The translations under genes were made by a program, and so were the position numbers. Under the pieces are notes generated by a model, which ran no database searches, was not told where the DNA came from, and saw only the letters and a program-made list of their open reading frames with translations. A stretch of DNA of 64,000 nucleotides from a virus, in IMG/VR virus record IMGVR_UViG_3300021406_000010, positions 102,489 to 166,488 of that record; one strand, written 5' to 3'. Shown piece by piece: positions 20,878 to 29,142 of this stretch; position 1 is the stretch's first letter, and every line of letters starts with the position of its first letter.

Positions 20878-21409
20878 TTATGTCGGATTGAACTGGTTCG
20901 AGTTCAAGGGCACGTAGTGGGTATACGCGAACGTGATTCCTTTTGTTACAGCCAGTGCGCCTACGGTGACTGTCTCCCCGTCGTTGATGTCCACTACCGT
21001 GACGTTCTGGTAGACCTTGCCGCGCCAGGACCCGGGAGTGCCCTCCGTGCCGGGCGGCTTGATCACCATCGAGGCCGTCACGTAGTTCGGGTCCTTCTGC
21101 AGCGCCAGGAAGATGTCGACCATGTTCCAGGTCCCGGCCAGGCCGGCCAGCTGCCACCAGACGGGCTGGTTCCACAGCTCGCGGATGGTCACCATGACGG
21201 TGCCGCCGGAGATCACCCTGGACGTGGCGATCTCCACCGGGAAGCTGGAGCCGATCGGCTGGATGAATTGATAAGGCTGGCCGGCATCCGAGAAGGCCCT
21301 CTGGCCTGAGTCCTCGCATTAACCAGCCTTCACAGAAGGCAATTGGTGCTTTGTTATATGACAACACAGTGTAGCCTGAACCGACTACCCTGGCCTTCGT
21401 GGCGGCGAT
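20878..21409 (-). CDS. tail tube protein; probable ATC start; frame break at about 21316-21322
   Basis: Follows sheath; AATKARVVGSGYTVLSYNKAPIAFCEGW joins EDSGQRAF...PVEIATSRVI in another frame. Confidence 0.75.
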
Positions 21410-24042: not shown

Positions 24043-24672
24043 TCAGGACGTGATGGCAACCGACAGCGGAGGCGCGCCGGGGTAGAACTGGTCGGTCGCG
24101 GTCACCTGGATCTCCTCCAGGACGGCGAGCTCGTAGGTGACCGGGTCGGAGACGAACTCGCCCACCACCTGGACGGCGAACCCGCGCTCGTAGATGACGT
24201 CCATCGTGCCCCACGGGGTGCCCGGGGCGGCGGCCACGGCGCGGTCCTCGACGCTGTCCCAGCCCCAGGTGGAGGCGATCAGCGGATTGGCCTCCACCAC
24301 CTGGCGGAACTGCGACGGGAATGACGACTGGGCGGCGAAGGCGGTCAGCGACACCAGCTGGTCGTACACCATGTCCCGCTCGTTGGACGTCAGGGCGACG
24401 ATGGTGAAGGTCACGTGGCCGGCGAACTTCCAGCGGGCGTAGGCGTTGCCCGCCGGGTCCTGCTCGGTGTAGGCGATGCCGACGTTGCGGAGCTCGGCGC
24501 CCTCGTAGTCCACCCAGATGGCGGGGTACTGGGCATCATCGACCGGATACTCCACGGACACGTACGGGGGCCTGGTGCCCCCGGCCGGGTCCGGCTCGGG
24601 GTAGCGCACCCGGAAGGACTGCTCGATGGCCTGCACGGCAGAGGTCTTCAAAGACCGGAGGAACCCGCTCAC
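24043..24672 (-). CDS. tail terminator/completion-like protein
   Basis: 209 aa upstream of sheath; VSVEYP...YPAIWVDYE...FTIVALTSNERD motif. Confidence 0.7.
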   Translation of the reverse strand: MSGFLRSLKTSAVQAIEQSFRVRYPEPDPAGGTRPPYVSVEYPVDDAQYPAIWVDYEGAELRNVGIAYTEQDPAGNAYARWKFAGHVTFTIVALTSNERDMVYDQLVSLTAFAAQSSFPSQFRQVVEANPLIASTWGWDSVEDRAVAAAPGTPWGTMDVIYERGFAVQVVGEFVSDPVTYELAVLEEIQVTATDQFYPGAPPLSVAITS

Positions 24673-24745
24673 ATGGCTTCCGTGGCACCCGGCAGTTGCA
24701 GCTGCCGGGATGCCCGTTCGGAGCCTGCACCTCCCTCCCAGAGGA

Positions 24746-25045
24746 TGTTAGCAAGGAATGCCGTATGCTTGAGGCGCTTCGCAGTTGCAGGGACTTGCTC
24801 TCGCCGGGCAAGACGGCCCGCCTGGGGTGGTAGCCAGGCGGGCCGTTCTCGTCCTTGGCAAGGAATGCCGTATGATGGCCATGGCTATTCGCAGTAGCCC
24901 TGGCCGGGTGAAAGCAGGCCGCCCTCTGGTAGCGAGGCGGCCTGCTCCCGACCTGGCAAGGAATGCCATATGATGGCATCATCCCCGCCAGGGGTTAGTC
25001 CCCCTGGCCCGACGGCCCGCCACGGCGGGCCGTTTCCGTTTCCGG
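24746..25045 (+). ncRNA. array of three putative small-RNA transcription units
   Basis: GCAAGGAATGCC(G/A)TATG at 24751, 24858 and 24956, each followed by about 60-75 nt ending in a GC hairpin plus pyrimidines. Confidence 0.6.
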
Positions 25046-25204
25046 CTATCCTTGCCATCGGATGCGCAGCGTAGACGGACGTCCCGCAAGGGGCGGCGTA
25101 AGGCGGGGCCGGCTGGCCGGCGGCCGTCCCGCAGTCCAGCCTGGCGCCAGGCGGCACCGAGCGGCATCCTCGGTCCTGGGCCACGGCGCTCCCGGCCCGG
25201 GACC

Positions 25205-25906
25205 CTAGAACCGGGCGCGCCATCCCCGGTCGGCCGCGTAGACGCGAACCGGGAGGATGCCACCCTGTTCAGCGGCCAGCGCCATCGCGTGGTTCAGGAA
25301 CTTGCGGGGAGACAGGCCGGGGTGCCGCCAGCGGACCCCGACGTTCCCCGCCGCGATCGCCCCGCCCGTGCGGCCCGCCGTGGTCCAGGGCGCAGCGGCC
25401 TCGCGCCTGCCGATCCGCCCGGGGGCGCCCGGGTAGGAGGCGAGCACCGTGTACTCCTCCATGGTCCCGTCGGCCTTCCTCCGCCGCCTGGTCAGGCGCT
25501 GGCCGATCGGCGCGGCCCGGCGGAAGATCAGCACCTGCGTCCTGCCCGACAGGGTGACCCTGGTGCGGGCGCGGGGGTTCCGCTCCCGCTCGGTGCCGGA
25601 AGGGTCGTCGACCCACATGGGGATCGTCTTGCCCGCCAGCCCGGTCATGGTGAACGGCCGGATGCCCTGCTCCTGGAACCAGACCCACGAGTCCGCCCAT
25701 CCCACCCCGAAGAATCCCGCTCCGTACAGCGGGAACAGGCGGCTGGCGGAAGCTCCGGTGAGCTTCGGCATGACGCGGCGGGCCTCCCGGACCGCCGCGT
25801 TGGCCATGACGCGGGCGGCGGGTCCCTTGAGGCCGGGGATGAGCATGACGAGGCGGTCCGGGTGCTGCGAGATCATCATCTCCTGGATCTCGGCGAGGGC
25901 GGGCAT
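25205..25906 (-). CDS. neck/tail-completion protein
   Basis: 233 aa, basic, in head-tail region; VRWRHPGL.PRKFLN motif. Confidence 0.65.
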   Translation of the reverse strand: MPALAEIQEMMISQHPDRLVMLIPGLKGPAARVMANAAVREARRVMPKLTGASASRLFPLYGAGFFGVGWADSWVWFQEQGIRPFTMTGLAGKTIPMWVDDPSGTERERNPRARTRVTLSGRTQVLIFRRAAPIGQRLTRRRRKADGTMEEYTVLASYPGAPGRIGRREAAAPWTTAGRTGGAIAAGNVGVRWRHPGLSPRKFLNHAMALAAEQGGILPVRVYAADRGWRARF

Positions 25907-26902: not shown

Positions 26903-26993
26903 CAGCTTCCTTGCTATGATGGCGGTGGTTATCATGAGTTCGTCTTGTGGAGGACGACGCGAAGGGCGCCTGGTTCGTGCCGGGCGCCCTTTC
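26903..26993 (+). ncRNA. putative small RNA with own promoter and terminator
   Basis: CAGCTTCCTTGC-TATGAT promoter; hairpin tcgtctt/gaggacga; terminator aagggcgcctgg/ccgggcgccctt-t. Confidence 0.45.
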
Positions 26994-26994
26994 G

Positions 26995-29142
26995 TCATCC
27001 GGGCAGCGGGAAGGTAACGGGCGCCTGGTAGGCGCCGGACGCAGCGGGCGGCGGCTGCTCACCGGGGATGAGCGGCCCGTTGACCTGCTCGATCCAGGCG
27101 TAGCTGGCCGGCAGCCGGGTGTAGGTGCCCAGCACCCGCGCCAGGAGGTCCTGCGCCGGGGGGATCACGTACGCGACGGACGCCACGGGGTCCTCCAGGG
27201 CGGCGCTCATCATGTCGTAGGAAATGGCTGCCGTCGCCTGCCACGGGGAGGCGAAGCCGGTGCGGAGGGTGACCCGGGCGGGCACGGCCAGCTGGTAGCG
27301 GCGGCCGTCGGACCGGAACAGGTAGTCCAGCGGGTAGGCGCGGAAGTCAGGTACCGACTGGACGTTGACGGTGCCGGGCGCGACGGTGCCCTTCGCGGTG
27401 CGCTGCTGCCCCTGGTCGGCGTCGGTGAGGATGGCGGGCCGCACGATGAGGGCCCGCACCCCCGGCACCTGCGCGGGAACGGCGGCGATCAGCTGGGTGC
27501 CGTAGCACAGGGTGCACCGGTACTGGTTGCCCTGCCCGTAGGCGGCGGAGACCTGCGCCTCGGCCGACGCCGAGTAGTCAGGAGTGGGTAGCGGCCGGGA
27601 GATGACCGACGACGGGGAGAAGCAGCGGGCGCAGCGGACGGCCAGCCCGGCGGCCAGGTCCGGGGGGCGCCACAGCAGGGCGAGCATGACCAGCTCCCCG
27701 AACTGCCATAGGGCCTGGGCGTGCCGCTGCCGTTCCTGGTCGATGGCCCATCCCTGGACGTCCCGCTGCCAGGCGGGCTGCGGGCGCCCTGGACGCGGCG
27801 GCGAGGACGGGACGGGCAGCGCCGCCCCGGTGGCGGCCAGCGACGCGGTCGCGGCCATCGCGGCGCGGGCGGCGGACTCGGCCAGCGGGACGGCCCGCAG
27901 CAGGGGGGCCGCCGCGAGCCCGGCGGGAGCCGGGACGGCCCCGTGGGCGGTAGCGGCCAGGACGGGGCGGGCGGAAAGGACGGCGCCGGCCTGCCTGGCG
28001 GCCAGCGCGGTGGCGTGCAGCAGCGGGGAAGCGGAGAGGTAAACGCCAGGTGACGTGCTGGCGACGGCGTGCAGCAGCGGGGAAGCGGAGAGGTGCACGG
28101 CACCCGGCGCGGATCTTGTTCCCCGGGCAGTGAGGGCGCCGCCCGCCGTGAGGTGCGCGGCACCCTGCAGCAGCCCGTGGGCGTTCGCGGCCAGGACAGG
28201 GGACGCCGCCAGGCGGACGGCTCCGTGGCTGGCCAGCGTGGCGGCGACGTGCAGTGAGGAGACTGCGGCCAGGGCGGCGGCTGCCTGCCGGGAGGAGGTG
28301 GCGGGAGCCGCGAGGGACGCGGCGGCTGCCAGCGCGGCACCCCCGGGGCGCGCCACGGTGCCCGTGGCGGACAGCACGGCGGCAGCGGGCAGCCGGGCAC
28401 CGGGAACGTACCCCGCCGCGCCCAGCGTGGCCGCCGCCGCCAGCGCTGCCCCGCCACGGGCTGTCGCCGTCGCGGCGGGGACCAGGAAGGGTGCCGCCGC
28501 CAGCGCGGCGGACGCCTGGTCAGTCACCCTGGCGGCGGCCGTGAAGGACGCCGCCGCCGCGAGGGACGCGGCGCCGGGCATGAAGCGCTGGGAGGTGGCG
28601 GTCAGCGAGGTGCCCGCCGCCAGCACGGCGGCGGCAGCGCGGCCGGGGGCCAGCAGGGCGGGGGCGGCGGCGAGGTGCGCGGTGACGGCCGACGCGGTCG
28701 CCTGCAGCACGGGGGACGCGGCGAGGTGCGCCGGGGAGGTCCTGGCGATGGTCGCGGTGGCGGCCAGCAGCGGGGCGGCGGACAGCGCCGGGACGATCCC
28801 GCCTGCCGTCATGACGGGGGTCGCGGAGAAGGAGGCCGCCGCGACCTTGATGACCCGTCCGGCGGCCCTCAGGACTGGTGCCGCCGACAGGGCCGTGCCG
28901 GTGCCGCCGACGCCGAGGACCGGGGCGGCGGACAGGCGGGCCTGGCCGCGCACCAGGGCGGACCCGGTGGCCGCGAGGGCCGGGACGGCGGCCAGGGGGG
29001 CCTGCGCCTGCCGGGAGGTGACCGCCGTCGCGTGCAGCAGCGGGGCGGCCGTGAGGGAAGACGAGCCGACCTTGCCGCGAGTCCCCGCCGGGCTGACGGC
29101 GAACGCGGCCGTGAGGGCGGCGGCGCCGTTGACGGTGGGCAC
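26995..29142 (-). CDS. head-closure/neck protein with long Ala-rich repeat N-terminal extension
   Basis: 715 aa; many L(S/A)A(A/S)P.L.A repeats, then CxxC...CxxC domain (ERQRHAQALWQFGE). Confidence 0.7.
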   Translation of the reverse strand: MPTVNGAAALTAAFAVSPAGTRGKVGSSSLTAAPLLHATAVTSRQAQAPLAAVPALAATGSALVRGQARLSAAPVLGVGGTGTALSAAPVLRAAGRVIKVAAASFSATPVMTAGGIVPALSAAPLLAATATIARTSPAHLAASPVLQATASAVTAHLAAAPALLAPGRAAAAVLAAGTSLTATSQRFMPGAASLAAAASFTAAARVTDQASAALAAAPFLVPAATATARGGAALAAAATLGAAGYVPGARLPAAAVLSATGTVARPGGAALAAAASLAAPATSSRQAAAALAAVSSLHVAATLASHGAVRLAASPVLAANAHGLLQGAAHLTAGGALTARGTRSAPGAVHLSASPLLHAVASTSPGVYLSASPLLHATALAARQAGAVLSARPVLAATAHGAVPAPAGLAAAPLLRAVPLAESAARAAMAATASLAATGAALPVPSSPPRPGRPQPAWQRDVQGWAIDQERQRHAQALWQFGELVMLALLWRPPDLAAGLAVRCARCFSPSSVISRPLPTPDYSASAEAQVSAAYGQGNQYRCTLCYGTQLIAAVPAQVPGVRALIVRPAILTDADQGQQRTAKGTVAPGTVNVQSVPDFRAYPLDYLFRSDGRRYQLAVPARVTLRTGFASPWQATAAISYDMMSAALEDPVASVAYVIPPAQDLLARVLGTYTRLPASYAWIEQVNGPLIPGEQPPPAASGAYQAPVTFPLPG

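Follow-up and report, generated by a model that had tools for sequence, protein, structure and literature searches.

A tandem array of three putative small-RNA cassettes antisense to the virion operon of an uncultured actinobacterial myophage

T4-type phages carry promoter-early stem-loop (PeSL) cassettes (Arbiol et al. 2010, PMC2839356), and intergenic non-coding RNAs were shown by RNA-seq in the cluster A mycobacteriophages D29, L5, and StarStuff (PMC5712189). The actinobacterial RNA 6C/B11 pairs via its C-runs with G-rich ribosome-binding sites without Hfq (PMC10470900), and RNA anti-CRISPRs (Racrs) match a known repeat at an identity and coverage of at least 90% (PMC10651486). The locus described here shares with the PeSLs a repeated host-polymerase promoter joined to a stem-loop, a position in a variable part of the genome, and plausible recombination handles. 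With the RNAs of D29, L5, and StarStuff it has in common short non-coding transcripts, here predicted only, in an actinobacterial phage and with no function assigned, but those RNAs are not arranged as tandem promoter-terminator cassettes, and the array has no sequence similarity to cultured phages, for which BLAST (plasmids included) returned short terminator-like pieces only. The original prediction regarded the locus, a cassette of independently transcribed small RNAs, as its best candidate for an undescribed system. This novelty has to be narrowed with respect to the architecture, which resembles the PeSL cassettes of T4-type phages, and is retained for the family of the third unit (family B, which is new here) and a companion element of the relatives (element A), both of which are uncatalogued. 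Judging from sequence comparison, we consider it somewhat probable that the array represents three mini-genes for early trans-acting small RNAs.

The window, i.e., the whole stretch of 64,000 nucleotides that was analyzed, corresponds to bases 102,489–166,488 of a 166,488-bp virus record (71% GC). Its source is a cluster-C-like actinobacterial myophage of 166 kb from soil, the host of which is presumably an actinobacterium in view of the GC content and the relatives. The array is located upstream of the tail sheath gene in the virion operon, where a 532-bp gap separates two minus-strand genes, and its units are oriented on the plus strand, antisense to this operon. The gene preceding the tail sheath (24043–24672, minus strand, PHROG 2748) encodes a 209-aa protein with a putative tail-completion role, as judged by position only, which shares approximately 30% identity with genes located ahead of the tail sheath in cluster C mycobacteriophages and Gordonia phage SCentae, and 65–76% with proteins from many uncultured phages. 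The other neighbor is a 233-aa virion-operon gene with no function assigned (25205–25906, minus strand, PHROG 2819). Since the sequence of the gap was identical in two independent assemblies and its length was equal in all assemblies returned, the array is not an assembly artefact. At 24673–24685, and at the same place in close relatives, a conserved GGAAG word replaces GGAGG 4–5 nt ahead of the start codon of the 209-aa gene; on the other strand, this word is part of the sequence preceding the hexamers of elements A and B.

The predicted 17-bp repeat was confirmed as exact at positions 24751, 24858, and 24956 (spacings of 107 and 98), compared with a mean of 0.09 matches with up to three mismatches in shuffled sequences, and was found to extend to 24 nt. 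Promoter copy 1 (24745–24769) is two-faced, with a leftward extended −10, TGC-TAACAT (24750–24745, minus strand), whose predicted start lies at around 24738 on the minus strand, and a rightward TATGCT (24764–24769). The predicted RNA of unit 1 (24776–24852, plus strand) comprises a weak 5′ part with TTCGCAGT, a 7-bp hairpin (24794–24812), and a 13-bp terminator stem (24813–24846) followed by a pyrimidine tail. Copies 2 (24852–24876) and 3 (24950–24974), both on the plus strand, have lost the leftward hexamer and contain only the rightward −10 TATGAT. The predicted RNA of unit 2 (24883–24950, plus strand) opens with a 17-nt hairpin (24883–24899) and contains a terminator-like stem (24913–24946) with a poor T tail. 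The predicted RNA of unit 3 (24981–25042, plus strand), the family B member, has an unpaired 5′ AUCCCC, an 8-bp hairpin with a 6-nt loop (24987–25008), and a terminator (25012–25033) followed by a T-rich tail. A fourth, degenerate copy of the promoter motif is inverted (25037–25061, minus strand), and the 140 nt beyond it showed no folding advantage over shuffles. A solitary unit of the same design with an unrelated body is found at 26903–26996 (plus strand), comprising an extended −10, TGC-TATGAT (hexamer at 26915–26920), a hairpin, and a terminator (26961–26992).

The stems of the three units were as originally described, and unit 2 lacks a T tail. None of the units was detected in a standard terminator scan, and a scan of the whole 166-kb genome for stems of at least 10 bp with a T-rich tail produced eight intergenic matches, which included unit 1, unit 3, and the solitary unit (26961). 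The fold z-scores from the predicted starts versus shuffles were −2.5, −3.1, and −4.5 for units 1, 2, and 3, respectively. The word TTCGCAGT is indeed common to units 1 and 2 and had no other occurrence (chance of 0.16 for the shared 8-mer by itself), and GCCGGG is also shared by both units, but its structural role differs between them.

The claim that no open reading frame fits within a unit has to be modified, as a 30-codon ORF starts at 24881 in unit 2, with its stop codon in the next repeat. The units might be micropeptide genes, which we consider very improbable. The ATG of this ORF follows the second −10 by 4 nt, and leaderless genes are frequent in this phage, but this codon is ahead of the expected start site and the frame crosses the terminator. 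Its GC3 was 0.57 compared with 0.92 for genes, units 1 and 3 have no equivalent ORF, and no coding bias was found in the short ORFs of the array. A CRISPR mini-array, for which identical repeats with 30–45-nt unstructured spacers were the criterion, was rejected because the bodies are 75–85 nt long, structured, and mutually related, and because the repeat is a promoter that recurs throughout the genome. When viral and metagenome collections were scanned for the exact 17-mer and for tandem motifs with a spacing of around 85–120 bp, the only matches were this phage (L058) and unrelated sequences. A pattern match that is probably due to chance consisted of three Fur-box-like palindromic repeats on an unrelated lower-GC viral contig (L035:6140–6285, also L049 and L054).

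The repeat had been interpreted as a variant of the phage promoter motif ending in a −10 hexamer. It is a variant of a clade-wide motif, but the main −10 of this motif is on the opposite strand. Using a weight matrix, around 35 motif copies were found in the genome, while shuffles yielded none over a score of 15. The motif consists of a 13-bp core flanked by one hexamer per side and reads TGN-TANNNT on the opposite strand, which is an extended −10. This type yields the strongest mycobacterial promoters, and TANNNT is the dominant actinobacterial −10 (PMC3898074). Among the 31 copies outside the array, an ATG was located 6–7 nt downstream in 13/23 copies with the opposite-strand TANNNT and in 1/8 copies without it, and the corresponding values for the forward TANNNT were 4/7 and 2/24 (p = 0.014), at a background frequency of 2.3%. 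Since the association of hexamer and ATG was seen in both directions, both faces of the motif appear usable. In the dispersal of a repeated host-polymerase promoter over the genome, here with leaderless ATGs at 6–7 nt, the phage is similar to those with PeSLs. The rightward −10 of the original prediction is intact as TANNNT in all three array copies, compared with 7/31 copies elsewhere, and only copy 1 retains both hexamers. In close uncultured relatives the motif is dispersed, with a variable N in TGN, and it is absent from the three cultured cluster-C-like phages tested. Neither a sigma factor (PF04542) nor a WhiB gene was found as an explanation of the motif. A CsrA-type GGA-loop reading of the repeat was rejected because the predicted starts are located downstream of the motif and because copy 1 is unable to pair.

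Structural conservation in relatives, which had been proposed as a check of the original prediction, was found for unit 3 in three other lineages, but not for units 1 and 2, which had no homologues anywhere searched. The 29-nt core of unit 3 was found again at this slot, with its orientation unchanged, in L064/L065 and L001, which form one clade, and in L067/L068. Its identity to L064, L001, and L067 was 23–24/29, which was reached by 0/2000 shuffles, with the four-fold sites of the neighboring gene (50–65% identical) as the comparison baseline. L176, which was fetched after the model R2 had been built, gave an out-of-sample match with E = 0.00045 and contains a complete stand-alone cassette that has TATACT as its hexamer and a terminator of its own. 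The hexamers TATGAT, TATTCT, and TATACT are located 8–9 nt ahead of the C-run, separated from it by unrelated spacers; L064, L001, and L176 thus have T-A-x-x-x-T at the unit-3 distance, with a different hexamer middle. L067 has no −10 directly ahead of the B element, which is joined to element A. The family B terminators are followed by T-rich tails and differ in sequence and length between lineages. Since the −10, the 5′ C-run, and the 22-nt hairpin are kept while the terminator varies, the family fits an RNA working in trans. The claim of independent small-RNA units is thereby supported by comparison, in the form of rightward mini-transcription units with a hexamer-ATG grammar, a kept −10 spacing, and varied terminators.

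The 8-bp stem of family B was 95% paired in five sequences, with one double change and three G-U changes, and its covariation score was reached by 105/500 shuffles, making the stem covariation among these five sequences suggestive, not significant. Only the first helix of model R2 was relied on, its terminator helix being one column out of register for L064/L065. Template switching can yield paired stem changes without selection, and the high identity of the unit-3 homologues could reflect recent exchange instead of selection. The protein tree was poorly resolved and did not reveal in which order gains and losses occurred. Family B was not found in the rest of the 18 phage records, and the cassette is missing from most relatives and is therefore dispensable.

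The slot that contains the array is an insertion site. In around 20 relatives it was occupied by 14–31 bp, a cytosine methylase, HNH, endonuclease VII, antisense ORFs, or short hairpin regions, and by a tandem array in none of them. In L066 (1840–2948), the cytosine methylase is leaderless behind a motif with a TAACAT hexamer, the same as in array copy 1. Element A occupies the same slot in L064 (2931–2986), L001 (3368–3424), L067 (2926–2984), L063 (196–251), and L155 (89–150), in all cases on the minus strand. It is composed of a TANNNT hexamer, 7 nt, a 9-bp stem, and an inner tri-/tetraloop hairpin, with two covarying pairs, and four different TANNNT hexamers occur at the fixed distance. The hexamer region of L155 and L063 forms additional pairs with the 3′ flank. 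Element A had no Rfam match and is not present in the genome of this phage. In L002 (3730–3870) the slot is filled by four CGCTTAC copies and several hairpins, and in L140 (1186–3500) by a 2.3-kb antisense insert, the first ORF of which appeared globin-like by eye. Several relatives, namely L002 (151–1805), L003 (575–2086), L004 (241–313), and L144 (137–1186), carry tRNA clusters in antisense orientation to the virion operon, located upstream of the 233-aa gene; this phage has no canonical tRNA but contains the solitary RNA unit in that region.

As the main alternative, the array might consist of empty PeSL-like cassettes, i.e., duplicated promoter and stem-loop modules left after the gain and loss of accessory genes, with the RNA as a by-product and with a role as recombination handles, terminators, and a restart promoter, which we regard as possible but rather unlikely. 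The variable slot content among the relatives, the motif that drives the leaderless methylase in L066, the precedent in T4-type phages (PMC2839356), and the restriction of units 1 and 2 to this phage are in its favor. However, the unit-3 body, with its C-run, 22-nt hairpin, and loop, is kept across lineages despite differing terminators and promoters. Moreover, PeSLs end in a Shine-Dalgarno sequence and the start codon of a gene, whereas the array units end in a terminator and no gene follows. They also differ from PeSLs in their structured bodies of 30–40 nt, one of which is conserved across lineages. As to the gene shuffling and mini-circles associated with PeSLs, the slot content varies among relatives, but no variation of the array was seen in the assemblies read.

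Units 1 and 2 appear to be diverged duplicates. The 10-bp terminator arms of unit 1 are those of unit 3, while unit 2 retains the 3′ arm of the unit-3 hairpin and has three compensatory changes relative to these terminator arms. Two short words are common to units 1 and 2, and both units are devoid of a C-run. From these sequences, we infer that a tandem duplication of a B-type cassette and subsequent divergence may have produced both units. The pattern of their 3′ domain had no match in 185,579 prokaryote genomes. A hairpin in the leader of the 209-aa virion gene, downstream of the array (24684–24714), has a 10-mer in common with unit 1 (p = 0.004), which is probably due to common descent.

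Six soil RNA runs contained part of the surrounding 3 kb. In four of them the neighboring genes were covered patchily at a depth of 3–8, with no coverage of 24731–25410. These data are assembled contigs from size-selected libraries, and the gap is uninformative for RNAs of 60–80 nt because such libraries lose hairpin RNAs of this size, contigs drop short pieces, and the presence of DNA is possible. RNA contigs from two studies ended at 24730 and 24723, which are at distances of 8 and 15 nt from the leftward start predicted at 24738 and give a weak hint of a leftward start from copy 1. At position 20888 of the window, the RNA contigs of two runs continued with the same differing sequence, which points to a strain variant at the junction.

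These contig ends are also a weak hint in favor of reading the stacked hairpins as cis elements of the late minus-strand mRNA, which would attenuate, process, or stabilize the virion transcript between head and tail genes. The units fold equally well on the minus strand, where stems 1 and 2 also carry short T runs. Nevertheless, cis elements are an improbable explanation, as T-rich tails and a positionally conserved −10 are found on the plus strand in this phage, L064, L001, and L176, and as the leftward hexamer has been lost in copies 2 and 3.

An Rfam check, which the original prediction had called for, produced nothing meaningful at gathering or E-value thresholds, with neither a CRISPR nor a tRNA match at E values of up to 10. 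This negative result bears on anti-defense mimicry, in which unit 3 would be a shortened type I-E CRISPR repeat acting as an RNA anti-CRISPR and units 1 and 2 would be tRNA-loop decoys for anticodon nucleases. Racrs are likewise small intergenic phage RNAs that occur as solitary units behind their own promoters (PMC10651486), and unit 3 is able to fold at its 5′ end into CCCC-GCCA-GGGG with 8 nt thereafter, a structure equal to the E. coli I-E stem-loop (PMC11317134) minus two base pairs. Unit 2 opens with a 5-bp stem and a 7-nt loop, and TGGTAG occurs in the D-loop of 5/15 tRNAs of related phages, this phage being without tRNA. Unit 3, however, resembles only a shortened I-E stem, falling below the 90% criterion versus the E. 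coli repeat, and the repeat-like fold lacks covariation and loses in competition with the 8-bp stem that carries the pair changes. The 7-nt stem-loop is not formed in unit 1, and the loops are arranged in the reverse order to those of tRNA, so that we hold mimicry of this kind to be unlikely.

Other known classes were searched for as well. No tRNA or tmRNA cloverleaf was found in the array units using ARAGORN and Rfam, and the hundreds of calls obtained with relaxed ARAGORN thresholds were rejected as false. There was no Rfam match to bacterial Y RNA and no Ro60/TROVE gene nearby. A TIGR-Tas system was not indicated, with no Nop domain in the genome and an array period of around 100 nt versus the short-period repeats expected, and no reverse transcriptase gene was found that would point to a retron or RT-associated RNA. 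Outside the window, a long, very GC-rich region without called genes contains short repeats and palindromes (G000:C1 86400–87600); the sole ARAGORN tRNA call (Arg) was at G000:C1 86745–86833, without Rfam support, and a tRNA-shaped sequence with altered loops was seen at G000:C1 11215–11300.

In the scheme that we infer, which extends to transcription and its timing, the history of the duplications, trans action, and targets, the three mini-genes would be read by the host housekeeping RNA polymerase from the rightward −10 of the standard motif of the phage. Each mini-gene would yield a non-coding RNA of 60–77 nt that ends at its own hairpin and is antisense to the virion operon, and copy 1 would also fire leftwards and be able to restart the transcription of the tail genes. 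The array would have originated by tandem duplication of one small B cassette residing in the insertion slot of several relatives, with unit 3 as the conserved member and units 1 and 2 retaining the terminator with altered 5′ bodies. Most likely, the RNAs would act in trans early in infection. The unpaired 5′ C-run of unit 3 could bind to host mRNAs at their G-rich ribosome-binding sites by base pairing, in the manner of 6C/B11, or, with about equal likelihood, its fixed-size hairpin could be a protein decoy. As in 6C/B11, unit 3 is a short two-hairpin RNA with an exposed C-run, but the C-runs of B11 are in two loops, whereas the four C of unit 3 are in the 5′ tail. The Rfam 6C model (RF01066) reached 19.6 bits (cut-off of 47), on a terminator of the other strand. 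With regard to the predicted targets on the phage side, no internal target was found, as neither antisense pairing of the units with phage start regions nor pairing with the tail-gene leader was better than in shuffles, and no partner protein was found.

We tentatively propose, as a possibility that is clearly less likely than not, that a mobile small-RNA family B, together with element A in relatives, occupies an accessory-gene slot of uncultured actinobacterial myophages and was triplicated and diversified in this phage into RNA effectors that silence host mRNAs or decoy defense proteins. The non-coding RNAs of actinobacterial phages have so far been almost only unexplained RNA-seq peaks. 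Here, a 60-nt candidate with a defined promoter, a conserved core, and a terminator in four phage lineages can be synthesized and tested in a laboratory actinobacterium, and the two-faced promoter provides a second testable element. If the action in trans is true, small RNAs can occupy an accessory slot in the same way as methylases or nucleases, and diversify by duplication.
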